From NCBI GenBank assembly GCA_964035545.1, contig OZ037773.1:463751-527750 (forward strand): a stretch of DNA of 64,000 nucleotides. Direction: 5' to 3'. Below are positions 9,201-53,400 of the stretch, piece after piece (position 1 is the first letter of the stretch; each line of letters starts with the position of its first letter). The position numbers and the translations under genes are program-made. Source of the DNA: Bugula neritina (lineage: Eukaryota > Animalia > Bryozoa). Under the pieces are notes generated by a model. It had not been told where the DNA came from. It did no database searches and saw only the letters and a list, made by a program, of their open reading frames with translations.

Positions 9201-11692
9201 AAGCTCCGGGGCTTTCTGCTGCGTTGTCTAGCAACAAATAAACTGGGTTGCCTAGCAACAAGCAAGTAAGTCAATGATATTCTAAGCAACAAAATTCTCA
9301 ATTTCAGGTTTAAAAGCTTAATGCAGTTGACCATGAACACCAACTTTACTAAAGGGAAACATTAAATAGTATTTCAAATAACCTAAAGTGGCAATTAATT
9401 TCAATAATTCGTAGATTTGTTGTGCGGCTTGCTGTGAAAAAAATCTTTGGAGAACTTCCAATACTTGTTTTTTAAACTTGCTGATCATAACAAAACAAAT
9501 CAGAAAATCAAACCTGAGTTTGTATCTGGTGGTATAGAATCAGTAGTTGAAAACTCTTTTCTCCTAATTGACCAATCAGAAATAATATTATCCATTCTCT
9601 GCTGGATACTTGTACTTGACTTCCTGCTGGTTGCCAAGGTAGCGGTTCTGTCCTGACTCGTACGTCTGCTTAAGCTAATTGTGTCAAGGGACTTCACAGA
9701 GCTGAGAGCCATATTGCTTGGTTCTTTGGCAGAGTGGTACTCCTAGCAGCAACCAATAGCAACAGGCTTTACATATTGAAACAACCATACACTGAAGGAC
9801 TACCATCTCCAATGGTTGACCTAAGATGACTCAGGATATGACTCATAGCAAAGCTTTCTTATTTGTACTCCACATGAAAAATCAGAATCTACTATTAAAA
9901 GCTTACTAAAACGAGTCTGTATTTGTGACACAAATATAACTGTTAAAAATGGGTTGCACTTGGCTGTGGTTTTATTACTTTATTGATGCTTATATGCTTA
10001 CAACTTATTCAATTTTTTCACCACAAATACAGTATAATATCTTTCTAATTTACATAGAAATCTGGGCATCAAAAGCATAAGAACTATTATGATATAAGGC
10101 AGTAAAGTAGTCTTATCAATGCATTAGGTAATATTAAACTTTACATAGCAGATATACATTTTAATATTTTGGTTGCCCAGCATAATATATATTGTATATT
10201 ATAACGTATAACACACAACACAGCATATTGTGTCCTCATCTCTCAACCAGAAAAGACCTGCACACAACATATTCAGTGTATCCTCAGAACTGTAGGCACT
10301 GGTTACCTCTTCTGCAGCACCAATAGAAGCAGACGACGTTCTCCTCTCCAGCACCTCATTTATCCTCTGTATCATCACTCGGAGACCTGTCTGCTGGTTC
10401 TGCAGGATGTCCAGCTTGTTTATTATATCACATTGCCTTGGTTCCTGCTCCCCCTCCAACTCATTCAACTCTGTGTCTTTAGAGCACTGTCCCTTAGCAG
10501 TCTGCTTCCTGGATAGAGAAAATGTGGGCTACTGATTTCAGTAGCATGTAATGTATATTTACCATATTCGATCAACTATTACTAAATGAGTTACCTACAG
10601 TTGAAAATGCAACACTTTACTTTAACAAAATAAATAATCTTGCAAGTCAAAACCAATTTGCTTTGCCGTTTGTTTATTTTAGTTTGTTTGAGCAAACAGC
10701 AAGAAAACTAAAAAACATATTGTAGCCAAAACAAAGAACTTATTTTACATTCTCACAGCCGTTTGGCTACACATACAGAACTACAGTTGTTATAGCCTTA
10801 GAGTGAGTACATATAGCCTTAGAGTGAGTGCATATAGCCTTAGAGTGAGTACATATAGCCTTAGAGTGAGTGCATATAGCCTTAGAGTGAGTACATATAG
10901 CCTTAGAGTGAGTATACATAGCCTTAGAGTGAGTACATATAGCCTTAGAGTGAGTAAACATAGCCTTAGAGTGAGTATACATAGCCTTAGAGTGAGTATA
11001 TATAGCCTTAGAGTGAGTATACATAGCCTTAGAGTGAGTATACATAGCCTTAAAGTGAGTATACATAGCCTTAGAGTAGTATACATAGCCTTAGAGTGAG
11101 TATACATAGCCTTAGAGTGAGTACACATAGCCTTAGAGTGAGTATACATAGCCTTAGAGTGAGTACACCAACTTACACTTCAGTTTGGGGGGGTTCGTTC
11201 ACAATGTCTGGTGATTCCTCTGCAGAAACTAGAACTGTCGCTATGGCTGCGTCTACCATCTGTGTGCAGCTCACAGCTGAATCGAGTTGACTTCCTGTTC
11301 CTGTGTCTCTCTTCTCAACTCTCGTCATCTTCTGAACTAGACTGAGCACCTCATGCTTTGTCTCCTCATCAGACAGGGCATCCTTTATACGGTCCACAAA
11401 TCTCTCTCGTATCTCCTTAAAGTAGGATATCAAATATTCTGAGTTCAGACTAGCAGCGTTAGACTAGCAGCGTTATACTAGCAGCGTTAGACTAGCAGAA
11501 TTATACTAGCAGCGTTAGACTAGCAGAATTATACTAGCAGCGTTATACTAGCAGCGTCATACTAGCAGTGTTATACTAGCAGCGTTAGACTAGCAGAATT
11601 TACTAGCAAAATCAAAGCATACTTGTTCAAATGTTCTTGATATTTTTCGTTGACTAGGAAGTTTTATATTTACATGCAACTGTGAAAATAAA

Positions 11693-17700: not shown

Positions 17701-20700
17701 GTTACATAGTATTATATGGTGAATTATCCATAAATCATACTACATATAAGAAAACCATAATGCATTACCCAATTACTATGTTATTATGATACAGTATTCT
17801 ATAACATAAGATGAGTATTGCCTTAGGACCATCAACACACCTGAATGTGAGGTAGGGAGGTCTGGTTAGGGCGAGGTCTCCAGGAACCCCCAGAGAGTCC
17901 TTCTGGGAGACTATTCAGAGGTAGCAGACTGATGTGGCCAGCAGCGTTCCTGACAGGCACAAGCATCAGGTGTTCTCCGTCAGGACCGCTTTCAGCTAAC
18001 AGACGCTGACCTGTGCCCTGGTGTGGCAGCAGGAAATACCATGTAGGCAATATAGACAGAGGTAGAAGTACATGATACAAATATACTCATGCAAGTTTAT
18101 AGTCACCATCTCTGGGAGAAAACCTCTTATGAAAAGGGTTTTATTAAATCTGGTTAAGGACTTATTCAGATGAGGCACAGGAGCAATTGTGACTGGATGC
18201 TCTTCCTAACATCACCAATGACTTTTGTCTGGGTTCAAACCCATGACTTCTTAGTTTATAAGCAAATTTTCAAACCCCGAGATCCTTGGCTGCTCCCTAA
18301 GTGCGTGACACAAATACTCAAACGTTTTGCGAGGATTATAAAATTCAAAACTCCTAATGTATAAAGCATGGCTATAATAATCCTAAATCTACTAGCCAAT
18401 GTATTATTAAAATAGCATACGAGTGTTTGGTTTGGAGTTTCTGGTGAGAGAGTGTTTCTCAAATAATAATCTTCAGCTGTTATCAATGTTGGAGAAGTTG
18501 CCCTATAAAAGAAAACAAATCATTCCAATATTAAGTAATACTCCCTGAATTTTGCTGTACATCAAATTTGACAGCAAACTTCTACAGCTTTTTGAAATTC
18601 TCTTAAAACCAAATTTAAACTGTAACTCAGAATTACCGAGTTTGAGTGGCGGTTCTGTTTTGATTTCCTGTTTCTGCAGCTTGTCTGTTGGTGACATCTC
18701 GGGGAACACCTTCTGGTGAATTACTGAGTCGTGCCATTCCCACTCTTTGTACATACGGAGGAGACAAGTAGGAAAAGTCCTTCTACAGAATGTATCCAAC
18801 AGGGTATAATGTGTAATCATTTCCACTGAGCAGGCATTCTGGCTGTAAGGTGAGGGGATATAATCTAATGAACAGGGAGGGGGTTCTAAGCCAGCTAACA
18901 TGGCAGCAACAGAAAAAGCATATTCAAGCTTAAGCAGAACAAAAGGAATAAATAAATTTCAGCTGTAATATGCAGCAGCCGATTGAAATCAAATATTCTA
19001 TGAATGAAGAAAGATGATAAACATGAGATGTACATACTTGTAAAGCACCAGTTGGTGCTAGTAGCTGTTGATAGAGTTGATGTCCCTCTGCATGTACTTT
19101 CTTACTAACTACTGGCTGGGTGTCAAGGACACTAGGTGACGTCTGCGTCTTTCTCCTCACTCTCTTAGTCCTGTGTCTCGAACGTGAACTGACATCAGTC
19201 AGAGCTTCTGTAGACACGTTTTCTAGGCCGCTGTTTGCTGTCACTTCCAGGGTTCTACTTTTCTCTGACTGGTGTACGGAACTATAGCTATAAGGTAAAG
19301 ATTGTGCAGAGTTCAGACTCTCTACTCTACTTTGACCAGAAGTTTGCACTGCAGCATCAAGTTGGTATTTGAAGGAACTGCTGCTGCCCACCACAGATGT
19401 CTGTCCCGACATCAACTTTGTGCTGGTAATACTTTGGTCACTAATGTACTCTTGGAGTTGTCTTATATAAAAGTCTGCCGCGCTTGGTGACAGTGAGCTT
19501 TTCTTGGTGCCTTTGGTGTCAGTTTGAATGACCTTCAAATGAGACTGTGAACTTTCGGAGCTGCAAACATTAATGTGTTTTTGCAAATAATTCTTACTAA
19601 AACTTCATTGGAATAGCATACTATGTTTCATGACAACATGTTCTATTTGCAAATATCTTATTAAAACAAAAACAAAGTCACTTTGACGTTTTGCTATATG
19701 GTTTTTACAGTTGAAAAAACTTTGCATGTTGGCTTTATTCTTTATTCTAAGAATTTTTTAGTTGAGGATGCTTGGAATTTATTTTATTTCTCATTTTGAC
19801 AAAGCAGTAAGCGTAATGTTTGATAGAAATTATAGTATAACACAGCCTACCCTACCCTACACTAGTACAGCTTACCCTACCCTACCCTACCCTAGCACAG
19901 CTTACCTTACCCTAGCACAGCTTACCCTACCCTAGCACAGCTTACCTTACCCTAGCACAGCTTACCCTACCCTAGCACAGCTTACCCTACCCTAGCACAG
20001 CTTACCCTACCCTACCCTAGCACAGCTTACCCTACCCTAACTAATCTACCCTACCTTACCCTAGCACAGCCTACCCTACCCTAGCACAGCTTACCCTACC
20101 CTAACACAGCTTACCCTACCCTAGCACAGCTTACCCTACCCTAGCACAGCTTACCCTACCTTACCCTAGCACAGCCTACCCTACTCTAGCACAGCTTACC
20201 CTACCCTACCCTAGCACAGCTTACCCTACCCTAACTAATCTACCCTACCTTACCCTAGCACAGCCTACCCTACCCTAGCACAGCTTACCCTACCCTAACA
20301 CAGCTTACCCTACCCTAGCACAGCTTACCCTACCCTAACTAATCTACCCTACCTTACCCTAGCACAGCCTACCCTACTCTAGCACAGCTTACCCTACCCT
20401 AGCACAGCTTACCCTACCCTAGCACAGCTTACCCTACCCTAGCACAGCTTACCCTACCCTAACACAGCTTACCCTACTCTAGCACAGCTTACCCTACCAC
20501 AGCTTACCCTACCCTAACTAATCTACACTACCCTAACCTCAATTATCACAGCCCAACTTATACTTCAGCTAATAAATACTGCTAGCAAGATGTTTCGTCA
20601 CCAAAATATAAATGAAAAACACTTCTAATTTACTTCAGCATACCCATCGGCAGCAGTGAGCTGTGCACCCGCTGGGAGTGTCAGCGTAGTGTCATTGGTA

Positions 20701-24120: not shown

Positions 24121-27100
24121 TCATCTTTCTATTTTAAAAACATGCAGTTTCCTGTCACTCCATCCTGGCACGGCAATAATTCCGTCTTTAATGCTTGGCA
24201 CTCCGCCAGTTTTTGGTAAATCATCGTGAATGAGAGTCGTAAGTAAATTGCCTGCAAATTGAAATTAGTTGTACTTTAACTAATGCCAAATGCATTTCTC
24301 ATTGTCCCTTTGGCTGGAACCAAAATGTGTTTGTTAATAAGACCTTGATTTTGCAACAGTATTTAAGAATGGAAAAATATTTAGTCGCCTTACCTCCCAG
24401 TGAGATGATGTAGATTGCTCTTTGGTTATTTCTGGTAGAAACGTAGATAAGTTCGTCAGAGTCTGTGCACAACCTGTTTCCGCTTTTTAATTTGTCACAT
24501 TGCCAGATACTTGTCAGAGCCCCATCTTCAAACTTATACTTGATCAGTTTACCTTCACCAAGCCCGAGCAAATGACCGTCAGACAAAAAGTGTAAACTCC
24601 GTGGGAAAACTGCGGGAATAAAACTTTCCTTTTGCTCAGTCTGTAAATCAAAAATGATAAGTTCTTTGCTGTCCGGATTATTGAACGCAATGTATCTGTC
24701 CGAGACCGTCATATCTGCTGCACCATCACCAGTCTGTTCAAAGCTCAACAGCTCTTCCCTTTCTGTGAAACAGCCATTCAAACACATTTCTATTTTACAT
24801 TTATTAGCATCTTTTTGTAAAATGTAAATATGATCTCCGTTGTGTTCAACAGCAGTTGTTACTGCAACTTTATCTGTCATCTTCCGTGTAACCATTTGGT
24901 AGTTCCTGTTCAGAAGCTGTACTCCGGAATGAGTAGCAATAAGAATACCGCGCTTCCGTTTATGACTTGCTGAGTAACAAAAACCATCTGTTCCATGTTC
25001 AGATAGGGGCTTCAGTGCAGAGGGCAGCGTCATGAGTCTAATATTAAGCTGAGAATCAGTGTCGTAGCCTGCAATACAAATCAGACATATACATAAAGCT
25101 ATAACTTTTGGACACAATATTTGCTATGGTTCTCTATTTATGAGCAAATCCAATAAAATGCATTTGATAGGCTGTCATGGTTTGACAAGTATAATGCATG
25201 GGTGATCCTATTGCAAGTCTGAAACGCATGAAACTGACTAATAGAGAAATAATTTGCAAATAAAATCAAACTACCGTCTATAAATATTTCAATTTCTTAT
25301 GATTGAGTTCTCTAACAATATCCATGAATTTGACCTGTTATGTAAGGTGTACCATTTTAATCGGTGCCGTTTTTACCAAGCACTGCTTAGTACTTATAAA
25401 GACTTCTCTATTTTAAAAACATTTATAAATTATTCATAACGAAAACAAGTTTATAGATATGCTTCTACTTCAGTTAACACTGTACTATACTCTGTCCTAT
25501 TACTGTGAAAAACACTCGCACGGTACTATACTTTGTCCTATTACTGTGAAAAACACTCGCATGGTACTAACTCTGTGGGTCGAGGTTCTCAACAACACTT
25601 GGTGTGTTATCAATAAGAATCTGATCTGGGCCCTGTTTCTCTATTGTCTCTACTCTCTCAGCTAATCCCTTCTTCTGCTTGATCATCTCAGTAATGTGAC
25701 CATTATTCAGCAGAGTCTGCATTTCGGCAGTCAACTTCTCCAGGTTGTCTTTCTTCATCATCAGCTGGTTGTAATGATACTCCACCTGACTGGTAATCTT
25801 TGCTCTGTGATTAGTTATCTGTTGTATCAGTGATTGACTCTCTTCCTCTATTGTCCTGATCTGCTCACACATAAAACATGGTAGTATATGTGGTGAAGAC
25901 CAAGTTACATGGAATAGAACTTTAAAATTACATGCCTCAGCTAAATTGTTAATTCAACTTATCTATTACTATTGGAAACCTTCAGTAATCAACAAGGAGT
26001 AATACATAAATAATTGGCTAAGCTTATTCAATAGAGAGACAGTGTATTCTATATAAAGCAATAGTAGACTGATTCATAACACAAAACATTGCTACATTTA
26101 TGTTTACAAAATGTTGTGTGTGTGGGTAGTAATAAGTAATAACATTCTAATTAAAATTATCAAACTAACAGGACAATGAAACAAAGTGGGGTTTTATTGG
26201 TCAAAGTAAAATTAGGTTAATTCACTGGTTGATGACAGCCTATTTCACATAACAGCCTTTTCTATCAGTTATAACTTCCCTTTTCTATGATTGCTATATC
26301 ACTTTACAACGCACGCACGCACACGCGCGCGCACACACGCGCCCAAACGCATGCACGGGCACACACATGCACATGTGATTGGATAGTTAAACAATCCTTC
26401 ATTATTAATGACTACACCTCATATATCTTTGATTTGCAAGCATTCTATTCCTGTCACGTTAGCCTGATGTTTCTCACTTACTCTAATGTGCTTTTAAAGG
26501 AGGTAAAATATGTCACCTCATTACTTGCTTCAGTTAATTCAAAAGCACTGAGTGTAATTTAATCAAGGTTAAACATGGTGGATGCTGTAGCTGTACCAAC
26601 TTGAATATTTTTAACTCTTATAATCTCCTTCAACATTTCTCCGCATTTCTGCTCTTGAATGTCTAAGTCTCGCCATATTTTCTTGTCCTGCTCTAACACT
26701 TCCATTTTTTTCTGAGCAACGCTTTTAATCTGAGCTTCTAAATACGAGTTGACTTGGGCTTTCAACGACGTGAGGGATTTGAATTTATGTGATTTCAGTC
26801 CTAAAACATATTGGAGTTGTTTTAGCACATGCAAGAACTCCATTATGCAGTGTTGAGTTTACCCAGTTGCCCCTGTAGAGTAATGCAAGTTTGTAAGCCG
26901 GAGGCATCCGGTTCAAATCCCAGTAAAGGCAAAAGTTTTATGCATTTTAAGGTACTGTATTTTTACATTAATTATACTGTGCGGGTTAAACTGTGAACCT
27001 AACGTCTTTGATTAACAATCAATGATATTTTGCTACTAACCAGTGAGAATGCATAAGAATGTACCTGTGCAATCAGTTGCATCAATCTCGCACTCAAAGC

Positions 27101-29094: not shown

Positions 29095-29401
29095 TGTGGT
29101 GGCTCGTGGAGCTACCAGCAGCACGATACACAGGGTCGCGTAATTGACCCGGAACAATGACAGCCAATTAGCGGCTCTAGTAGTTAGTAGCAGTAGTAGT
29201 TTTCCCGCTGTTAGTCAGTCGAAGTTAGAGTGTTGAATAGCCTAGATGTGTGGAATTATTAAATGTATTTGTATCGTTTTTGTAATGTGTTCTTGTGTCT
29301 AAAATATATACTCGTTCACTCGACTTAACCTGGTGAAGTTTTCTAGCAAGTAATTAGACTCTCTGGATTGCATATCAACCCTAATACTGAAAATCATAAC
29401 A
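29095..29401 (+). repeat. 5' LTR of outer element
   Basis: TGTGGTGGCTC...AATCATAACA, direct repeat of 40326-40632. Confidence 0.97.
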
Positions 29402-29402
29402 G

Positions 29403-29420
29403 TGGTGGCAGCGGTGGGAT
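29403..29420 (+). promoter_or_regulatory. Primer-binding site, tRNA-Leu
   Basis: TGGTGGCAGCGGTGGGAT is the 18-nt complement of the 3' end of metazoan tRNA-Leu(AAG/TAG), ATCCCACCGCTGCCA-CCA. Confidence 0.9.
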
Positions 29421-30163
29421 AGTGCACATCCAAGATGGAGACTGAAAACGCTGGAATGCAACCACCGGCAGTAGAAGGTGAGCGTAGAGACAATGCTGTA
29501 GAGACAATATGCCTGTCAACCATGTAGTAGAAGAGGGAAGGGTTCCGCGAGAACTAACTGAAGACCGCTACCGGTTAAAGGCGCCCACCTTCACGGGCGA
29601 AGAAGAGGTGGAGCAATTCATCCAAGAGTTTAGCGACGTAATGGACGTCGCCCAGTGGCCCCCTAGGGTGGCCCTGCTGAAGCTTAGAATGGCATTGATG
29701 GACAAAGCCAAGCCTTATGGGCTGGGCGTAGACATCGATAATATCTTTGCTTCTCTGCGGGCCCGCTTCGGCTTCTCTGCTACAGATGCCCGAGCCCGAC
29801 TGCAAAGGTTGCGGCGTGATTCCCGCACCCCGCTACGGGAACATGCCGCCGCGGTCATGAAGCTGGCACAGATCGCATACAGCGACTTGCCCCCAGTCAA
29901 CCGCGAGAGGTACACCCTTGACGCCTTTATAGCATCGGTCGACGATCTGGGTCTCCACTGTAATGTTTTGAATGTGTGCTGCATGCAATAGAGTTGTTTA
30001 TTATTACTGCATGAATCAGAAGATGTTTGGCAACTGTATGATGTCATATTTTGTATATATATAAGATGAAGATTTACAAATATAAGTTAGTTTTTAGCCC
30101 TCAACCGAGTGTAGTCTCTACAGCATAAACATATAATAACTGCAAATTAACACAACATAAAAT

Positions 30164-30176
30164 TGGCGACGAGGAT
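30164..30176 (+). promoter_or_regulatory. Primer-binding site, tRNA-Ser(GCT)
   Basis: TGGCGACGAGGAT is complementary to the tRNA-Ser(GCT) 3' end ATCCTCGTCG-CCA. Confidence 0.85.
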
Positions 30177-30206
30177 AATCTGATAGTGGCAGCTCAAGAT
30201 TTCAGA

Positions 30207-33166
30207 ATGACTACTGGATTTATACCGCAGTTTAGTGAGAAGATAGAACATTATATGCAGAGGTTAGAAAGTTATTTTCTTATACACAAGACAGATGCTG
30301 ACTTGAAGAAGCATGTACTGATTATGGGGCTTTCAGAGAGTCAATACGAAACTTTGACAGACTTGGTATCACCAGAGATGCCACAAGATGTCAGCTATGA
30401 CAATCTAGTACAGCAGCTAAAGAGGCATTATGGTACAGTGACAAATAAAATGGTTGAGAAGGCAAAGTTTAGAGAAGTCAAGAGATCACCGAATGAATCT
30501 GTGACAGACTTCGTGGCTAGACTGAGGGCACAAGCTAGATCATGTGAGTTTGGGAATGTGCTACATGATAATTTGCTTGAACAATTTAGAATAGGGGTGC
30601 AAAGTAAGACAATCAGAGAGAGGATAACTGCTATGGCAGCAGAACAGCAATCCAAGCTTCAAGCAGTGATAGATGTTGCACTGCAAGTTGAAGTTGATGA
30701 AAAGATGAACAGTGTCAAGTTAAACAGTGCACCGGAAACTGTTTCAGCCGTGAGAAATGGAAGGGTCAATAGTGGAGCAAGACCTAAGCATACAGAAAAT
30801 AATAGCAAAAGTCAAGCTATTTGCTACAGGTGCTCTAGGACCAGACATTTGGCGAGTAGTAACAGTTGTCCAGCAAAGGATAAAACGTGCAAGGACTGTG
30901 GCAGGAGAGGACATTTTGCCAAGTCGAAGTTCTGTAAAAGCACAACAAAGCACCATACAGTGGCAAAAGTAGAGGAGATGAGCGAGGAAACGTTGTTCGC
31001 TGTGAAGGGAAAATCTGAAATACCAAAATGTGATGTGACCGTTGTGGGTGAGAGTATTTTATTTCTAATTGACACAGGAGCTTGCAACAATATCATAGAT
31101 TTGGCTGCCTATAACAGGACCAAGCACAAAGTTATGTTGCGGCCAATAAGCGAGGCTTTGTATGCTTATGGCAGTGACAAGCAATTAAACATGATTGGTT
31201 GTTTTAATACTGAAATGGAGTGTGCTGCATATATTGCTAAGGCTACTGTGTATGTTTTTAATGGTTATGCTAAATGCTTACTAAGTGGTAAAACAGCCAC
31301 AGATTTACATCTCTTGTCTTTTGATAGTAATGTTTATAATGTAAGTGCTGAAAATCAGTGTGAAATTGTTAGACAATTTCCAGAAGTTTTTCAAGGTGTG
31401 GGAAAACTCAAAGGGGTGAAAGCAAAATTTCACGTTGATAAAACAGTAACACCAGTTGCTCAGCCAGTGCGTAGGTTACCATTGGGGTTCAAAGATAAGG
31501 TGAAGCAAAAGCTAGATGATTTGTTAGCTAATGACATTATTGAGCCCGTTGCTGGAGTTGGTACGACATGGGTGAGTCCATTGGTGGTAGTTTTGAAAGA
31601 TAATGGGGAAATCAGACAAACAGTTGACATGCGCCAGGCAAATAAGGCTATTTTGAGGGAAAGACACCCTATTCCAACTGTTAAAGAGATGCTAGCTAAT
31701 TTAGAAGGGGCTCAAGTTTTTTCAAAGTTGGACTTGAGGCAAGGTTTTCACCAGGTGGAAATTGAGGAAAATTCAAGGCCTATTACAACTTTTATCACAC
31801 CCTTTGGCTTGTTTAGATATAAAAAGCTAACGATGGGTACAAATGCCAGCCCAGAGCAATTTCAGTATATCATACAGCAAGCATTAGCAGGTTTGGCAGG
31901 AGTCCAAAATATGGCTGACGATATTATTTTATTTGCATCAAACAGGCTAGAGCATGATGAGAGGTTGAAAGCATTACTTTTGAGACTCAAACAAGTAGGC
32001 TTGACACTGAATGCTAGCAAGTGTGAATTTAGAGTTAGCTCAGTGAAGTTCCTTGGCTTTATTATCTCAGGTAGCGGAATTTCAGCTGACCCAGAGAAAG
32101 TTAAATCAATAGTTGAATTTCAACCACCGAAAAATGCGACTGATTGCAGGAGCTTTCTTGGCTTGGTAAATTTTGTGGGAAAATTTATTCCAGATTTAGC
32201 TAGTGTATCAGAGCCTATTAGGCAAGTCACTCGAAAGTCTGTTCAGTTCACTTGGGGTAAAGAACAGCAAGGTGCTTTTAACAAGATTAAAACTCTCATG
32301 GCCAATGCTAAGACGCTGGCTCATTTTGATTCAAAATTGAAAACCAGTGTTGTGGTTGATGCTAGCCCATTTGCATTAGGAGCTGTTTTAGTGCAGGGAG
32401 ATAGAGTGGTGGCATATGGACACCGCGGGTTGACAAATGTTGAGCGTAGATATAGTCAAACAGAGAGGGAGGCTTTGGCAATAGTGTGGGCCTGTGAACA
32501 TTTCATGATGTACTTGTTAGGCATTGAGTTCGAGCTAATAACAGACCACAGACCCCTAGCATTTATATTTAATAATCCTAGCTCTAAGCCAGTTCCTAGG
32601 ATAGAGAGGTGGTCATTACGCTTGCAGTCATTTAGATTTACAGTGAAATATAAACCTGGAAAAGGAAACATAGCTGATCCACTCTCTAGGCTGTGTAATG
32701 TGATGAATCACAAAGTAAACAGCATTGCTACAGTAGCAGCAGATGATTATGCTAGGCAGATTGTCAAAGGGGCAGTGCCAATAGCTATTAAATGGAAAGA
32801 CTTGGTAGCTAAGTCTAGTTCATGCAAAGAATATGCAGATGCTAGAAGTGGGGCTAGGGAATCTGAAGTAGAAGTAGGGGATGAAGTTTGTTGAGGGAGG
32901 AGGATAAAGGAAAATTAAGTTGCAACTTTGGCAATGATAGGCATGTAGTAACATCCAAACAGGGCTCCGATATTGTATGTGAAAACCCAAGCAATGGCAA
33001 GGTTACGAGGCGCAATTCGACTTTTGTCAAAGTTATCCCCAAAACACCTAGTTTAAATAAGAATGATTCACCTGTGGGTGATGCCAACACCCAGCAAAGG
33101 CCTCAACGTGTTAGAAAACAACCTGATTGGTATGGGGATGTGGTAATTCATGCACTGGATGAGTAA
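30207..33166 (+). CDS. Gag-Pol of inner element (gag, protease, RT, RNase H; integrase HHCC and DDE core missing; tail frameshifted at ~32888)
   Basis: Knuckles CYRCSRTRH...C and CKDCGRRGH...C; protease FLIDTGA; RT KLDLRQGFHQ and NMADDII; RNase H VDASPF, EREALA, TDHRPL, IADPLSRL; then a jump to integrase C-terminal KEYADAR..VGDEV and RPQRVRKQPDW. Confidence 0.93.
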
Positions 33167-33248
33167 TATAAGATAATAATGAAATCTTTCAAATCCCAAT
33201 TTGAGATTGCCACACCTTTTAGCAATATTTACTTATGATAGTCTAAAT

Positions 33249-33587
33249 CAGGGCTGTCCAACAGGCGGCCCTAGGGCCGGATGTGGCCCGCAGCCTACAT
33301 TTATGTGGCCCTCGAAGGCATAAAGCTAAAATTATTTTTCACTGTTTACATGAATTAAAATAAAAAGCCACCTTTTAAATGCCTTATTTATACAAATAAC
33401 ACAAAAAATGCAGCTGGCAGTAACTATTGAGACTTAATTGTGTAATGATTCATAAAGTTTTGGAATAAAGTAGTTTGAAAAATACTGATGCTGTGGCCCC
33501 CAGCACAAGCTGAAGCTTACAATGTAGCCCTCCACATAAAATATTTCATTTCTGTGGCCCTCGGTTTGAAAAGGTTGGACACCCCTG
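33249..33587. mobile_element. hAT (Charlie/Buster-like) MITE in the 3' UTR of the inner element
   Basis: TIRs CAGGGCTGTCCAAC and GTTGGACACCCCTG (13/14 match); perfect 8-bp TSD GTCTAAAT (33241-33248, 33588-33595); subterminal TGTGGCCC repeats. Confidence 0.95.
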
Positions 33588-34352
33588 GTCTAAATGCTGT
33601 TTGTTTTTGTTAAAGCTACTATATTTGATGAGTAGCTAACTGTTTATAAATTGCTGTTTATTAGAAATTACTATTTTATCTTAACTTAGTCTAGAGCACT
33701 TGTGAAACTAATTACTTTTAGATGTTATGGGTAATTAATTATCTTTTTGAAGAAAAGAAGGGTTGTAATGTTTTGAATGTGTGCTGCATGCAATAGAGTT
33801 GTTGATTATTACTGCATGAATCAGAAGATGTTTGGCAACTGTATGATGTCATATTCTGTATATATATAAGATGAAGATTTACAAATATAAGTTAGTTTTT
33901 AGCCCTCAACCGAGTGTAGTCTCTACAGCATAAACATATAATAACTGCAAATTAACACAACATAAAATCCACCACCAGTTTCTAGCTAGGGGAGTCACCA
34001 CCGTTGAAGATGCTCTGACAGAGGGGGAAGCTTACCTCTTAGCCAATCAGATGCATAAAAGTCGCGGGAACTCCCGTCAAGTGGAGGTAGACCGCGCGGA
34101 CACGGCAGCGGGACGAGAGGAGGAAACCTCCGCAACGGCTGCCGTGGCTCAGTTAGCAACAGCATCGAAAGTCACTCAACTGACTGACATGCTGGCCAAA
34201 CTGATAGCAACACTGACACCCCAAACCCCAGTAGGTACCGCCGCTGAGCCCCTACGGCTACCGGCGCCGCCACCGGGGGAAACGGTCAGTTTTTGCTGGG
34301 AATGCGGAAATCAAGGACATTTTCGCAGGCACTGTCCCTTCCTAACTCCGGG

Positions 34353-34417
34353 GTTAAACTACTGCGGCCCGCAGATGTTCCCACCTTTTGCGGGCCGACG
34401 ATGAAACCTCCAGGGAA
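34353..34417 (+). promoter_or_regulatory. Candidate -1 ribosomal frameshift signal between gag and pol
   Basis: G TTA AAC in the gag frame, 5-nt spacer, 11-bp stem (34365-34375 with 34387-34397); the pol frame is -1 relative to gag and open across the site. Confidence 0.7.
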
Positions 34418-37400
34418 GAAGAAACGCAGGTCACCCAGACGGGTGCCGCGTGCTGGCAACCAACAGTGGCAACAGGCGCGACGGACCAGCAAAGGGCTTC
34501 GCCCCGCCGCTACATTTTCCATGCCCCTCCACAGTCGATTCGACGGGCTACCAGCCCAAGAATCTGGATGGGAGCCAGCAAAGGTAGCCGGAAATCTAGC
34601 CTCGGCATCTCCAAGGCCCACTTACCACCATCCCAAGAGACCTCCTTCGCGACCCGAAGCGAGGGAGGTACTCCCTGCGAGAGCAAGGCCTGAAGAGAGC
34701 GTTCAGGTGTAGCCCCATGGGAACAGCTATTTCTTGCCCGGTAAATTGGAAGGCAAAGCTGTCACTTTCCTCATTGACTCGGGCTGTACCACAAACCTCC
34801 TAAGCCGCCAACTCTTCGACACCCTCAGTGCTAGGGTCAGGGGCGAGATGGAATCGTACGAGGGAGAGTATGGCACCCTAGCTGACGGGTCATGCCTTCC
34901 CTTTTATGGTATAATTGAGCTGACGGGACGGGTCCGTGATTAAACGATCCAAGAGACTTTTATCGTCAGTCAGCTCAAAGAGGACGCCATCCTCGGGATG
35001 CCATTCCTAAAACGGCACGGATGTCACGTCGATTTTAGTAAATCTGCGATGGTGATGTCCGGGCGAGAACTCACCTGCGTCGACAAGTTCGGCCGCCCTT
35101 TAGTGGGAGGTGTGCAGGTGGTACGCAACCGTACCATACCAGGCCGCTCCCGGGCTACCATTCACTGCAAGGTGAACAATAGCTGGATCTCTGGACTCGG
35201 GGTAGTCGAAGGCGCGCACGAAAGGATCCAACTTGCCAGCAGTCTGAACCAGCTGACTGAGCAAGGGGAGATCTTAGTGCAGTGCGACAACCCCTTTATC
35301 GAGTCTGTCAAGCTTCCGGCTGGGTCTATGCTGGGCCGGTTTCACTCCGTTCAGGAGGAGGACGTGGGCCCGTCGCTGGGTGACGCGACGGAGGCACCCC
35401 CTTGGCACCCTACTCAAGGGCGAGGGACAGTCCCAGCACATCTCCGGGAGTTATAGAAACAGCCTGTGGTGGCTGCGCGAGTAACAAGGAGCGGCAAGCT
35501 ATGGCGGAGTTGCTACGCGACTACGGTGATGTGTTCAGCAGCGGAGATCATGACGTGGGACTGACTGGAGTTGTCAGACACGAAATACCGCTGACTGCAG
35601 GGACGGCCCCTGTCCGGCAACCCACACGCAGGCTGGGGCCGGAAAAAGAGAAGGAGGTTAGCCGACAAGTACGGGATCTTCTGGACCGCGGCCTCATAGA
35701 GCCCGCCCATAGTGCGTGGAGCTCGCCGGTCGTACTGGTCCGGAAGAAAGACGGCAGTTGGCGGTTCTGTGTGGATTACCGCAAACTCAATAGCGTAACC
35801 ATACAGGACGCCTACCCTCTACCTCGTATTGACGAGTCATTGGATGCCCTAGTCGGCAGCAAGTACTTCAGTACGTTAGACTTGCTGAGTGGCTACTGGC
35901 AAGTTCCTCTGAGTCCCGACGCCCAGGAGAAAGCGGCGTTTATCACACGGGACGGTTTGTGGAAGTGGAAGGTGTTGCCTTTCGGGTTAACCTCCGCCCC
36001 AGCCACCTTCCAGAGGCTGATGGAGCAAGTCCTCAGCGGGCTCCATTGGAAGACACTGCTGATCTACCTCGATGATATCATCGTGATCTCCCCAGACTTC
36101 GAGACGCATGTCAGTCGTCTGCGGGAGGTCTTCAAGAGACTCCGAGGTGCCGGTTTTAAGCTCAAACCTTCCAAGTGCGCTCTATTACAGCCGGAGATAA
36201 AGTACCTGGGGCACGTTGTCGGTCGAAACCGCGTGGCAACGGATCCCGAAAAGGTACGGGCGATAGAAGACTGGGTCACCCCTCAAGACTTGACCGGACT
36301 TCGGGCTTTCTTGGGGCTGGTAGGGTATTACAGGCAATACATACCAGACTTTGCGGGCATAGCACAGCCATTAAACCGGCTCACCGCAAAGGGGGTGACG
36401 TGGCAGTAGACCCCAGTCGAACAAGGAGCGTTCGACCGCCTCAAGGGTTGCCTACTAACGGCGCCCATCTTGGCCTACCCAGACCCCACTCTGGAGTACA
36501 TCCTCGACACTGACGCCAGTGACCAAAATGTTGGCGCTGTGCTGTCTCAAGTGCAGGAAGGCCGAGAGGTGGTAGTAGCCTACTACAGCAAGTCTCTCTC
36601 ACCCACTGAACGAAATTACTGCACTACCCGCAAGGAGCTGTTGGCAGTAATCAAGTCAGTGAAGCACTTCAGACCATACTTATACGGCAGGAAGTTCCGG
36701 CTGCGTACGGACCATGCCTCGCTGATCTGGTTGTGCAAGAGAGCAGAGCTCTCCAGTCAGGTCGCCCAGTGGCTCGAAGTCCTAGCTGAGTTCTCGTATC
36801 GGATCGAACATCGACCGGGCAAGAGACACAGCAATGCAGATGGGTTGAGCCGCCGACCTGATGGAGGCTGCAAACAGTGTCTCAACATCGAGAGGAAAGA
36901 CGGAGGTCCCCCGCGATGCGAGTTGGAGACATTGGCTCACCACGGAGCACCGTTTGACTGGGACCAGGGTCAACTCAGGCAGGAGGTTGACGAGTCCCCG
37001 GAAGTTATACAAAATCTCCGCACCAATCCTGTACTGGCCGATAATGTCCAGGAGCTGAAGAAGCTCCAGGAAAAGCTGCCTGGGGTAGTGGCAGACACAT
37101 ATCGGGCCAAAAGGGACAGGCGACGACCCAGCGAGGAACGCATACGGCAAGGATGCGCCGAGTTCCGGCTACTCTGCCAGCGTTGGGACTCGCTGAGGAT
37201 CGGGCAGGATGGTCTATTGACCATTTCTCTAGCTGCCAACGGCAGACACCCGGAGAGGAAAAGGGTGGTCTGCCCCAGCGCCATACGCCGCGAGTTAATT
37301 TGGGACACTCACAAACAGGCCCACGCAGGGGTCATGAGAGTGATCTCCAAATTGCAACTCCGGTGATATTGGCCCAAAATGGGGCGGGATGTCCGGCTCA

Positions 37401-38930
37401 GAGTAAAGCAGTGCGAAATTTGCCAGGCCAGCAAGCATGGCCGTCTCCCTGGTGAAGCGGGACGGCGGAGGCTATATGCTGGCAGGCTGTGGCAGGTGGT
37501 AGCTGTTGACCTGGTCGGACCCATGCCCCTGACCCCCAGAGGCAATAGTTGGATCTTAGTACTGACCGACCACTTTACTAGGTGGGCGGATGCTCTGGCT
37601 ATCCCAGTTGCGTCAGCCCCAACAGTGGCCAGGGCGCTAGACCAACATGTATTCTGTTATTTCGGACTCCCCGAACAGATACACTCTGACCAAGGTGCGC
37701 AGTTTCAGTCCCAACTGATGAGCAACCTTTGCCGCCTCTGGGGAGTGAATCAGAGCAAGACCACTCCTTACTACCCCCAAGGTAACGGGGTGGTGGAGCG
37801 CAATAACCGAATGCTAGGTGATGCGCTCCGGAGTCTTCTCCTCGGACGCAGTCAAGAGGAATGGGACACGGTATTGCCACAAGTCATGCGTGCATACCGT
37901 AGCACCCCACACACCAGCACTGGTAAGACCCCAAACCTCTTGATGCTCGGGAGAGAGACCCGAGTCCCTGACCATCTCACCTACCACGTTTCAGAGCGAG
38001 ACAACTCGATTCACGAGTATGCCAGTGAACTAGTGGAACGGATGAAGGTCGCACACGGTATACTGCGCGAACAGCAGTGGAAGGTGCGACACGAAGATTC
38101 CGAGGAACCACCCCTCTACCAGACGGGGGATAAGGTGTGGATGGTCAACTACCGTAGGCGTCGCGGACAGGCGGCTAAGCTACAGCCTAAGTTCGTGGGA
38201 CCCTACGTGATCATCGAGGCGATGCCCAACCATACGTACAAGATTGAGCACTCAGGACAGGTGTCTATCCAGAATGAGTCTCGCTTGAAGCCGAATTGGG
38301 CTAGCCCCGACGTGGTGGGAGAAGCCCCCCCCCCCCCCGTTGTTGGAGCCCAGGAGGCAGACAACAACGCGTGGGCGACGGTGGCAGGGACCCGAATATG
38401 AAGTGGTCGTATCGCGGGAAAAAGACTTGGTGAGAGACGAGCGACCGCTTTTACCAATAGAAGTGCGTCCGCCCCCGCCAAGTCTGATTCCATCACTTCC
38501 AGAAACCGAGCCGGTTCCGGAAGTGCAAACCCCCACGGAAGGAGGGGCTCCATCCGGAGAACAAGAAGAAGTGACCACTAACGGTGAAGTAGAAACGCCA
38601 CCAGGGGCCCCTAATAAAACACCCACGAGTGCGTCACCTCCCCTGGAGCGGGGACAACGTACGAGGCAACCCCCCGCATACTTGAAGGACTTCATATGTG
38701 ACTGCATTAAAAGCGGCACGTACGAAAGTCTGGGGGAAAACCGTACGGGGAAAGTATCGAGCAAAAGTGGGAGTTGTCAACACCATGGAAATATCAACTT
38801 TGGTATCGGCGGAAGTAGAAACAAAATTCATCCGCCGGATACACAAAGTCTTAATCACGCACCCCAACCACGTTGCTCGATCTTTTCATATGCTGATGCA
38901 GTCAAGAGTAGACGTGTTCCTAATCAGTAG
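34353..38930 (+). pseudogene. pol: pol of outer element (protease, RT, RNase H, integrase) with 4 in-frame stops and 2 frameshifts
   Basis: FLIDSGC (PR); LDLLSGYWQ, LPFGL, YLDD (RT); DTDAS, KELLA, TDH, NADGLSR (RH); H-H-C-C, AVDLVGP, HSDQG, VERNNR, PKFVGPY (IN). Stops at 34710, 34941, 36407 and 37364; frameshifts near 35454 and in the poly-C run at ~38326-38338. Confidence 0.95.
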
Positions 38931-39245
38931 TCCAAACCATTTCACAAATTCAGTATGTCTTACGACAACGGATCGTGGGGTGAGATAACTTTATCTTGAT
39001 ATGGAAACTAGATTGCATCACTCAGCTCCGACTCACCGAGTCAAATGAGCTGGAGATAGGCTAGTGAAATACCGTGGTAAGAACTCATTTTGACTTAGAG
39101 ATTTTATAATCTCATTGCAAAACGTGTTCTATCTGACTATTCACTACCATAAATCTCTACGAGTGTAACTGAACGAGAAGTTGCCAGGCTGTTTAAGCTG
39201 ACAACACTGCAGTGTATTATACTAACGCTGTTGAAACTCTTTCAG

Positions 39246-40027
39246 GTCACACTCGACCCGTTACGACCAGTGTACGGGATAGAGCACTTCCCGCTCCGCA
39301 TCATGAGAAGTATACCAATGGTGATCGGCCCGAGCCGCTGCGCCGCTGTTGGCGGTGGGTGTCGCCAGAAACAGAGGAGCAGATAGAAACAGCCTGGGGA
39401 TCCAAAGGAAGGACGCGGTGCCAGATTTGTGACGAAGAGTGCGCCTCTCACCGCTCCTTGAAGCTGCATGTCAACGCCCACCTGCTACTCACATTCTGCC
39501 CCTGTGGATATAGTGATGTCTACCCCTACCCCGTCACCAGACATCGGGCGACGGGCTGTTTCTCCGGAGAGAATTACGTGGTAGATGCCAAACTCTATCC
39601 CGAATTCTTAACTCTAATACTACCCCTAGTGAAGAAGGCGATGTTGTTGGCCGTCCTGACCTCGGGTTTCCAGCGCGTACTAGACTACGCCAGGCAACAA
39701 TCTCCATTGGTATCCGACCGCCCTCAGATTGTGTACACCCCCAAAGAGTTTTCCTATCCCGAAGAAGGAGAAGTCTCCCCTATCCCGACGAAAAGACGGA
39801 CCCGGTCTCCAAGCCCCCCTCTTCGTCGAAGACGGACACCGTCCCCAGATCCCGCTCGCCTAGCCACGGTGGAAGAACGCCTCCTCCGATTGCAGGCTGA
39901 GTTTACCCAGTTAGCACCGGATCTGCTTAATACCACGACGGGACTCTTTCAGTTAAAAGGTTCGGTTGGCCGGATTAAGAGGAAGTTACGTACCTGCCAG
40001 GCCAAACATCGGCTTGCCAAACACTGA
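39246..40027 (+). CDS. ORF3 of outer element: zinc-finger, Arg/Ser/Pro-rich, coiled-coil accessory protein, predicted to be spliced to leader exon 29435-29477 (about 274 aa)
   Basis: Uninterrupted ORF between pol and the 3' LTR; C-x2-C-x12-H-x3-H and C-x-C-x12-H-x4-C motifs; branch point TACTAAC (39220-39226) and acceptor CTCTTTCAG (ends 39245) in the same phase as donor AG|GTGAGC at 29478. Confidence 0.8.
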
Positions 40028-40325
40028 CTCTGGTTCTGTTGCCCGGAATGATCCACAAACCTCATCCTTTTGGGGGGGAACCCAAGACTGTCGTGTAAAT
40101 GCTTGACTGCTCGACAGCTCGATTCCTTGTCCAATACTACAACTAGCCGGTATTCTCTCTCTATAGCTGGCCAATTGTATGTGACCTGCTGTTATAATGA
40201 CTCTGTCTGTTATTGTATATCTTTATATATATGTTATGTCTTTTCCTTTGGTCTACTGATGTATGTGGTTAATGATGGAACAATTCTTTTATATCAGAAA
40301 GAGGGCTTTCTGCTGGTGGGGGCGG

Positions 40326-40632
40326 TGTGGTGGCTCGTGGAGCTACCAGCAGCACGATACACAGGGTCGCGTAATTGACCCGGAACAATGACAGCCAATT
40401 AGCGGCTCTAGTAGTTAGTAGCAGTAGTAGTTTTCCCGCTGTTAGTCAGTCGAAGTTAGAGTGTTGAATAGCCTAGATGTGTGGAATTATTAAATGTATT
40501 TGTATCGTTTTTGTAATGTGTTCTTGTGTCTAAAATATATACTCGTTCACTCGACTTAACCTGGTGAAGTTCTCTAGCAAGTAATTAGACTCTCTGGATT
40601 GCATATCAACCCTAATACTGAAAATCATAACA
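40326..40632 (+). repeat. 3' LTR of outer element
   Basis: Direct repeat of 29095-29401, preceded by G-rich GGTGGGGGCGG (PPT-like). Confidence 0.97.
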
Positions 40633-50422: not shown

Positions 50423-53400
50423 ATGGCGGAGAGAGGTCTACCAACTCGAAATGAGCTGCTTTTGGTGTGTGACCTTCACCTAGAAATCGACTGCGTATTG
50501 TGTCAGCGTGATGAGGACACAGTCATGTCCCGCAGACTAGAGGATTCCCTGAGGCTATATTCCAACAGAGGTTTGAGACCCGCATCTCAACCACCCGTAT
50601 CGCTGCATATAGCCTCACCTGGCGTCCATAGCAACCGCTGGTCCAGTGTGCTGTCCACTCCAAACAACCTTCCTACCTCCCAGCACAGAGTCAGTGCAAT
50701 GGTGCCGCAATGTGAGTGTTGAGCAGTGAGTCTGTCACCTCCTGATGTTGAAGTCAAGTAGTCATAGGATAGTTTTTGCTGATGTATTCATTGTGTTTAG
50801 GAATCTTTATCAGCTTTTAAGAAGTGCTGCGGAAATGTTGAATAAAATGTCCAAGTATACTGCCTGCTGTCTCTCACCTCTACATGTCTTACTCTCACCT
50901 CTACATGTCTTACTCTCACCTCTACATGTCTTACTCTCACTACACAATGTCTTACTCTCACTACACAATGTGTTGCAGCTGAACAAACTGCCACTTCTCT
51001 CTCAGCAAGTAATTACTCAGCAATCCCTGCCCACAATTCCTCAGGGCTTCCCTCGGCAGCCGTGGCGTCCAGAGATGTCAATACTCAGAACTCAGGCCAT
51101 GACTACAACGGTGCTAGACCAAGGTGAAGGTCACGCTATACACTTACTACTTACTCTATACTACAGTTCACTAGTTACTATATACTACAGTTCACTAGTT
51201 ACTATATACTACAGTTCACTAGTTACTATATACTACAGTTCACTAGTTACTATATACTACAGTTCACTAGTTACTATATACTACAGTTCACTAGTTACTA
51301 TATACTACAGTTCACTAGTTACTATATACTACAGTTCACTAGTTACTATATACTACAGTTCACTAGTTACTATATACTACAGTTCACTAGTTACTATATA
51401 CTACAGTTCACTAGTTACTATATACTACAGTTCACTACTTACTCTATACTACAGTTCACTAGTTACTATATACTATAGTTCACTAGCTACTATATACTAC
51501 AGTTCACTAGTTACTATATACTACAGTTCACTAGTTACTATATACTACAGTTCACTAGTTACTATATACTACAGTTCACTAGTTACTATATACTACAGTT
51601 CACTAGTTACTATATACTACAGTTCACTAGTTACTATATACTACAGTTCACTAGTTACTATATACTACAGTTCACTAGTTACTATATACTACAGTTCACT
51701 AGTTACTATATACTACAGTTCACTAGTTACTATATACTACAGTTCACTAGTTACTATATACTACAGTTCACTAGTTACTATATACTACAGTTCACTAGTT
51801 ACTATATACTACAGTTCACTAGTTACTATATACTACAGTTCACTAGTTACTATATACTACAGTTCACTAGTTACTATATACTACAGTTCACTAGTTACTA
51901 TATGCTACAGTTCACTAGTTACTATATGCTACAGTTCACTAGTTACTATATACTACAGTTCACTAGTTACTATATACTACAGTTCACTAGTTACTATATA
52001 CTACAGTTCACTAGTTACTATATACTACAGTTCACTAGTTACTATATACTACAGTTCACTAGTTACTATATACTACAGTTCACTAGTTACTATATACTAC
52101 AGTTCACTAGTTACTATATACTACAGTTCACTAGTTACTATATACTACAGTTCACTAGTTACTATATACTACAGTTCACTAGTTACTATATACTATAGTT
52201 CACTAGTTACTATATACTACAGTTCATAATAATGGTGAATAGTGATAACATTTGCATTGCATCAACAGAATACCCAGAGTTCAAAGGTCAATAACCTCCC
52301 CTGATAACCTGACATCTATTGGTCAGAGGAGTGAGGCCTTGACCTCTCTGCAGTCACATGACGATTCCGTAGCCTCAGGATCCACTACAAGACGCTCGTC
52401 ACTCATCAAAGGACTCGACTCACTTCTGAAGGCCACCAGAAAAAGACTAAACAGAAAATCTAAGCATGGGCCAGGTATGTCAGTGGTGGATATATTGGGG
52501 GAGAGGTATGTCAGTGGTGGATATATTGGGGGAGAGGTATGCCAGTGGTGGATATATTGGGGGAGAGGTATGCCAGTGGTGGATATATTGGGGGAGAGGT
52601 ATGCCAGTGGTGGATATATTGGGGGAGAGGTATGCCAGTGGTGGATATATTGGGGGAGAGGTATGCCAGTGGTGGATATATTGGGGGAGAGGTATGTCAG
52701 TGGTGGATATATTGGGGGAGAGGTATGCCAGTGGTGGATAGAAGAGTTGTTCTAAAAGCAGCTCCGAGTTGGGGGTGAATGAGTGCAGTAGTTTGAGATT
52801 CTAATCAGGAGGTGTGTCAGTGGCGGATAGATTAGGTGAGGTAATCCATAGAAAGGTTGTATATTCCATACATTTATCACCAGTTCTTCCCATTGCATTG
52901 CTAAATGGCCATTTATTTTACCAATGAGTTTTGATTTCATGTTTCACTAATCACAGCAAATTTTACTTTTCAGATTCAAAGGAAATTAAGGCGGGCTCTT
53001 CTGAGGTCTCTCAAACCGCTTGTGTTCAACCTGTAGGAACTCGTTCTACCCTCACCACGGCTATTGTTGTGCCCCCTATGAATATGGGACCCCCCTCTGG
53101 CGTTATGAAAACAGGTGTGTGTCCACTGTCCACCTCAGTCAATGTATTGTCAGTGTTACTGTTGTGTATCTGTAGTCAGCCATCTTGGATTACTTACATG
53201 ATATAGTACACAGCTGGCTATTGGTTAGTAAGGTGTCACATAGATTAGTTACATGATATAGTAGACAGCTGGCTACTGGTTAGTAAGGTGTCACATAGGT
53301 TAGTTACAGTCAGCATTGTCAACACCTTGACATATATGTGTGTAAATATCAGGCTGATCCAATGATCAAGCAAAATCAACTGAAGACTTCAAAAAGCAAA

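Follow-up and report, generated by a model that had tools for sequence, protein, structure and literature searches.

A putative spliced, non-envelope zinc-finger gene behind pol in a Ty3/gypsy retrotransposon of Bugula neritina

How does a retrotransposon express an open reading frame that lies behind pol and has no early start codon of its own, and what might the product do? Few animal LTR elements have a known route by which intron-bearing genomic RNA leaves the nucleus and gets past silencing, and in the literature searched CERV of the Caenorhabditis elegans element Cer1, confined to nematodes, was the one spliced non-envelope regulator found for an animal Ty3/gypsy element. In this study, we analyzed a third open reading frame (ORF3) in a 64-kb stretch of Bugula neritina DNA, hereafter the window, for which a preliminary description had proposed expression from an mRNA spliced out of the start of gag. 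Our sequence-based analysis suggested that this splice very probably takes place in vivo, with one LTR transcript either kept whole or losing all of gag-pol.

The element and its splice signals

ORF3 lies inside a Ty3/gypsy LTR retrotransposon (29095-40632, + strand). Paired LTRs, a target duplication and a primer binding site, the hallmarks of the Metaviridae, are present, and gag is followed by protease, RT, RNase H and integrase in the gypsy order. The domains were assigned with Pfam, except that the protease of this outer element had no Pfam hit and was recognized by motif only. The features are as follows, all on the + strand.

29095..29401: 5' LTR, 307 nt, TG..CA, one mismatch against the 3' LTR
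Either side of the outer element: target duplication ATTT, read on both flanks
29403..29420: primer binding site, presumably of tRNA-Leu type
29435..29477: gag start codon, 14 codons plus 1 nt, the coding part of predicted exon 1
29478..29483: predicted splice donor GTGAGC, phase 1; top-scoring GT, codon kept in gag relatives
29488..29958: first (5') part of gag, in the window copy not in the frame of the ATG at 29435
29959..33968: nested second Ty3/gypsy element within gag, 4010 nt, LTRs of about 205 nt, target duplication CCAC
33973..34404: remaining (3') part of gag, including the CCHC knuckle
34358..38930: pol, comprising protease, RT, RNase H, integrase and a tail, with frame changes and in-frame stops in the window copy
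39220..39226: predicted branch point TACTAAC, without listed variant among 34 contigs
39236..39245: pyrimidine tract and predicted acceptor CAG, phase 1; one contig reads TAG
39246..40027: predicted exon 2 (ORF3), an open frame of 259 aa beyond the junction codon
40326..40632: 3' LTR, with a purine-rich tract just ahead

The window copy is defective and cannot make intact Gag or Pol, since its ATG is out of the gag frame and its pol carries frame changes and in-frame stops. ORF3 and its splice signals are whole although gag-pol is broken, a contrast that is not significant alone, ORF3 being short. The LTRs differ at only 1 of 307 bases against several breaks in gag-pol, which suggests a defective copy mobilised by a helper. 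In a close relative, P0075, gag runs directly into the last part of RT/RNase H; its contig measures 5319 nt, and the copy carries an internal deletion.

The nested element has LTRs with 2 mismatches in 200 nt that end in TAAAAT, not CA, and a single 921-aa gag-protease-RT-RNase H frame; an integrase domain was looked for in it and not found. The insert is absent from another copy, one contig (run X2) joining 29950 to 33968. The predicted intron measures 9768 nt with the 4010 nt of the nested element and 5754 nt net; the preliminary description had noticed neither the nesting nor that the ATG at 29435 is the start codon of gag. In addition, an element of about 350 nt with short inverted ends (33240-33590) sits inside the nested retrotransposon and is skipped by contigs of both runs. 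Elsewhere in the window, pieces of host genes were observed on the - strand (8914-9270, VPS9-like; 25570-25953, actin-like; 58235-58618, a p24/EMP24 match), together with many minisatellite arrays, including 51002-52200, 59034-59781 and 19754-20571, with units of 24, 17, 20, 21, 18 and 31 nt. Long open reading frames across these arrays were without Pfam support where scanned.

The splice signals proposed in the preliminary description lie where it had placed them. The ATG at 29435 reads into the donor AAG|GTGAGC, the TACTAAC motif and the AG ending at 39245 hold their coordinates, and both sites are in phase 1, so that a 43-nt exon 1 and ORF3 would give an open product of 274 aa. The donor GT at 29478 scored best among the 57 GTs in 29098-29960, and with the nested insert set aside the outer element has AGGTRAG a single time. 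Between the branch A and the acceptor AG, 20 nt on, there is no other AG, and TACTAAC followed by a pyrimidine tract and YAG had one match in the window with both strands scanned. In simulations, for which the patterns were picked post hoc so that the figures flatter the signals and have supporting value only, AGGTRAG arose in 165 of 20000 first-60-nt stretches, the strict branch and acceptor pattern in 18 of 20000 400-nt spacers and a looser one in 2967 of 20000. The 34 contigs covering the acceptor, in which TACTAAC and AG showed no listed variant, are near-identical close copies and carry little weight. Neither a 29477-39246 joint among the 15 of 300 contig joints listed nor a loose contig end at the acceptor among the 8 of 9 listed was seen; contigs drop rare forms, and both results favour neither side.

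Conservation of the junction among relatives

The ATG at 29435 is the gag start in relatives: among 37 gag relatives, P0075 and P0092 have the same beginning as the window copy and continue into capsid. In the N-terminal alignment of 35 rows, of which the shortest hinge on gap placement, 32 retain the donor codon's G and 29 the E that follows, these being the best columns between the Met and the capsid core in an otherwise variable region. The distance from the Met to the donor codon varies by whole codons. Furthermore, 24 of the 37 gags have [ER]GE before their capsid core, against 3.5 (maximum 11) in 2000 shuffles, a control that overstates significance, the relatives being kin. This conserved E/R-G-E corresponds to AG|GT-GAG translated in phase 1.

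On the acceptor side, 19 of 79 ORF3 relatives extend to the junction motif, 17 with Ser before it, one with Leu and one being the protein P0025. In phase 1, TCAG would yield Ser and YTAG would yield Leu, and all 18 unspliced relatives that span the junction fit a CAG or TAG acceptor in the same phase. The conservation of the signals in relatives was read from amino acids, not DNA. DNA of ORF3 relatives was not found in metagenome, viral or prokaryote contigs, nor that of gag and integrase relatives in viral contigs; the gag search of metagenome contigs returned one weak 1.7-kb locus (L001).

In the natural protein P0025, gag sequence gives way to ORF3 sequence precisely where the junction was predicted. 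Compared with seven gag N-termini it has 12-13 identities in 14 residues before the junction and 0-1 in 10 after it, whereas against its ORF3 sister P0030 the counts are 1 in 14 and 8 in 10. The contig of P0025 (5320 nt) is shorter than the net intron, and other records of the same origin are translated across the intron end without interruption, so that P0025 is most likely a natural sequence lacking the intron, whether as an RNA contig or as a spliced copy that was reinserted. The protein alone does not appear to tell an RNA contig, a reinserted spliced copy and a gene-model origin apart. P0025 was the only joined gag-ORF3 protein found; a search with its residues 1-48 returned P0025 alone, a weak test with 2 candidates only. 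Thus the joined protein and the conservation of the donor codon and acceptor phase, checked at the protein level, supported the earlier proposal of a non-envelope 3' gene spliced from the start of gag.

The ORF3 protein and its possible roles

ORF3 encodes a domain with two zinc fingers, a variable linker, a coiled coil of seven heptads and a basic tail (all + strand).

39320..39712: compact domain with both zinc fingers, from alignment and model
39419-39481: C2H2 finger, within the compact domain
39497-39559: CxC..H..C finger, within the compact domain
39848..40021: long seven-heptad helix plus basic tail, from model and alignment

A word search, which may favour the C-terminus, found 74 relatives among 942 candidates (42-94% identity, none named), and a profile search found 123 cluster representatives with E up to 0.001. 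Across 79 sequences of 16-89% identity, two zinc-ligand cysteines are invariant and five more C/H positions are kept in over 90%. Column conservation is 0.75 in the domain, 0.87 in the coil, 0.88 in the basic tail and 0.52 in the linker; at least six R/K occur in 48 of 57 full tails, and the SR/SP-rich linker of the window's ORF3 is confined to its subfamily. As far as alignments can tell, this pattern is that of a selected protein and a real gene.

The full-length model was poor (pLDDT 60.6) and placed a helix at 202-258, with a hydrophobic residue at every seventh position over seven heptads. With a deeper alignment, the 141-residue core reached a pLDDT of 92.6 and a pTM of 0.84, and in this model helices wrap the C2H2 and CxC..H..C fingers into one globular domain. 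Sequence and fold searches matched the fingers only, the best sequence matches being DNA-binding C2H2 fingers. The fold searches returned no match with E <0.001 (best Z 4.2) and no whole-domain match, which does not prove a new fold, and ESM Atlas hits were all <0.9. Pfam gave ORF3 no family at cut-off, and 4 of 73 distant relatives weakly matched C2H2 models. The coil homodimer prediction scored 0.11 and spoke neither for nor against a dimer. In our view the ORF3 protein is probably a nuclear, self-associating nucleic-acid binder, and the evidence in hand does not separate RNA from DNA binding.

The domain is found beyond the window's family. P0239, a gypsy RNase H-integrase whose integrase is 60% identical to that of the window, carries it (32%, E 1e-11) in frame and C-terminal, about 500 residues behind the integrase; its presence there, in the same slot, indicates that the module is older than the window's family. 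Named relatives of the domain are bryozoan gene models. The C2H2-type proteins KAF6037488.1, KAF6040922.1 and KAF6040923.1 of Bugula neritina and XP_067940963.1 and XP_067944745.1 of Watersipora subatra have the two-finger domain in common with ORF3, and several of them a C-terminal coil as well; unlike ORF3, they are annotated as host genes, uncharacterised, and some have the domain twice. A tree of 42 domains, from which 4 rows without the motif were omitted, united the window and P0025 within a supported 15-row group, left the named host genes scattered and did not settle capture versus domestication. A wider scenario strikes us as rather unlikely: that a lophotrochozoan gypsy clade evolved a Rev-like switch from an undescribed zinc-finger arrangement, independently of retroviruses and Cer1, with spliced RNA reverse-transcribed and reinserted (P0025) and the bryozoan host genes as domesticated copies.

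We propose the following use of the splice. A single LTR transcript left whole would give Gag, Gag-Pol and the packaged genome, while a splice 43 nt into gag would give the accessory ORF3 protein at the loss of gag-pol. With a strong donor in that position, splicing would be the default fate of the first transcripts, after which the ORF3 protein would tip the balance toward full-length RNA. An element with such a donor would need an export route for its intron-bearing RNA, a requirement established for retroviruses and Cer1 in the accessible account (PMC10309623). The ORF3 protein would be the natural candidate because it is basic, zinc-binding and coiled-coil and would be made from the spliced RNA, and CERV provides a precedent. 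That it acts in the nucleus on the element's own RNA and exports the unspliced form is, by this analogy, the leading reading, plausible yet somewhat short of probable.

Rev/Rex-type export factors hold an arginine-rich motif, an oligomer helix and a leucine-rich export signal. Of these traits, a basic tail and heptads are present in ORF3, and its four NES-like patterns all fall inside the folded domain, with none in the coil. The intron is also the more structured part of the element: in a scan of overlapping segments with 25 shuffles each, 24 of 55 segments over 29495-39272 folded below z -2 versus 0 of 13 over exon 2 and the 3' part (39173-40572), which loosely fits a role at the RNA level. 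The spacer between pol and ORF3 folds at z -2.66, ordinary among the intron segments, and no single response element stands out.

The main rival to export is that the spliced ORF3 protein binds element DNA in dimeric form and either activates the LTR or protects it from silencing, in the likeness of Tas or VANC. We regard this as possible but doubtful. Its C2H2 finger pair matches the fingers of SALL, HIC2 and ZBTB (fold Z 3.0-3.6 over 50-60 residues), its heptads are leucine-zipper-like, and bryozoan host genes hold related domains. On the other hand, the domain is no Kruppel-type array: only the first finger is canonical, the second being CxC..H..C, the linker is LLLTF and not TGEKP-type, helix position 6 is hydrophobic and the model packs both fingers into one globule, all of which DNA binding could still accommodate.

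Both export and DNA binding start from the spliced product, and it is very unlikely that ORF3 is made mainly without the splice, whether by initiation at an exon-2 Met, through an internal promoter or as a Pol tail. The preliminary description had noted that ORF3 lacks an early ATG and had counted an in-frame ATG upstream of ORF3 in intact copies against splicing. In the window its observation holds, the first in-frame ATG (39641, codon 149) standing behind the zinc fingers, and the subfamily of the window, P0001, P0002 and P0049 has no Met before the fingers; such a Met is nevertheless present in exon 2 of 39 of 43 relatives, which in part bears out that objection. The P0239 domain, in frame with pol, likewise points to other expression routes in the clade. 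Yet P0025 is joined to gag despite possessing its own exon-2 Met, and in the window a stop codon lies 50 nt ahead of the acceptor.

An envelope substitute or a particle or egress factor, such as a small fusogen or scaffold, would suit the env position, the env-style splice, the long heptad repeat and a 19-residue stretch (residues 120-138) with a hydropathy of 1.95, but we consider it highly improbable. In the model that stretch forms an amphipathic helix within the folded domain, and a membrane segment is not conserved among the relatives, hydropathy exceeding 1.8 in only 3 of 74. Exon 1 is acidic and the product has no signal peptide, and Pfam gave no envelope match. ORF3 thus does not have the signal peptide and membrane anchor of an F- or gB-type glycoprotein, and its earlier designation as non-envelope stands in Pfam, sequence and model. 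Finally, a captured fragment of a host zinc-finger gene with an old acceptor, useless to the element, is scarcely credible: named bryozoan genes do have the domain and do not form one group in the tree, but the 74 relatives preserve ligands, heptads and tail against a drifting linker, a distant pol has the domain in the same place, and the gag donor is kept.

Comparison with known systems

The gene plan is already known from CERV of Cer1, and the ORF3 protein family was not found in print; no description of it appeared in the openly accessible literature, a scope that leaves aside subscription papers, Repbase, Dfam and supplements. In a survey of env-carrying animal gypsy elements, the strings 'zinc' and 'splic' were absent from the main text. 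The supplements of PMC13524379 are indicated to list bryozoan elements and may bear on the placement of the clade.

Besides the bryozoan proteins, three groups of systems were compared with ORF3. First, in the idefix subclade of Drosophila errantiviruses, the available text reports that env, the third ORF, is spliced to a short Gag peptide on a subgenomic RNA (10.1101/2023.08.03.551782). The splice plan predicted for ORF3 matches it, whereas that env is an F-type envelope glycoprotein and the ORF3 protein is without envelope features. Position behind pol is by itself no ground for calling a 3' ORF env-like. Second, plant LTR elements have conserved extra ORFs lying after pol and ahead of the 3' LTR, some of them nuclear and proposed to be accessory factors (PMC7264820, in the part accessible). 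The nuclear ones there are antisense and the sense ones are membrane proteins, and ORF3 differs from them in kingdom and sequence (PMC7264820). The extra gene brtn of the Botrytis element Boty, as cited in that source (PMC7264820), can be likened to ORF3 and is likewise of a different kingdom and sequence.

Third, Cer1 comes closest. The env-style organisation given in the preliminary description was supported as a splice plan, but its nearest precedent is Cer1 with CERV rather than Drosophila env, which makes it less new. As far as the accessible account goes, CERV is a spliced nuclear export factor in env position with its N-terminus in common with Gag; it has a leucine zipper and a cysteine finger, is needed for export of genomic RNA, is encoded by 5 exons, measures 517 aa and lacks homologs beyond the nematodes (PMC10309623). 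Cer1, like the window element, is a Ty3/gypsy element with a non-env ORF located after pol and ahead of the 3' LTR, and CERV, like the predicted ORF3 product, combines a spliced-on Gag N-terminus with a zinc-finger-like motif, a leucine zipper and a basic signal. The joining of an env-position ORF to the Gag N-terminus, as in CERV, is seen here in the natural protein P0025.

The two proteins also differ in the features described. In CERV the zipper lies in the part shared with Gag and is accompanied by a C4 loop and a G-protein-like domain, whereas ORF3 has a C2H2/C2HC domain and a C-terminal coil; the predicted ORF3 product takes 2 exons and 274 aa with only 14 Gag residues. The H, M and G-protein-like domains of CERV are not seen in ORF3, whose 130-residue zinc domain and long helix leave no room for a G-like one. 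No link in sequence or fold between them was seen, ORF3 being set apart from CERV by the latter's description. The nuclear export role of CERV is experimentally shown, and that of ORF3 is proposed by analogy; being small and well-folding, the ORF3 protein is suited to direct assay. If the proposal is true, a second, unrelated protein would occupy the slot of CERV throughout a clade whose integrases diverge by at least 40%, and accessory regulators would be recurrent in invertebrate retrotransposons.
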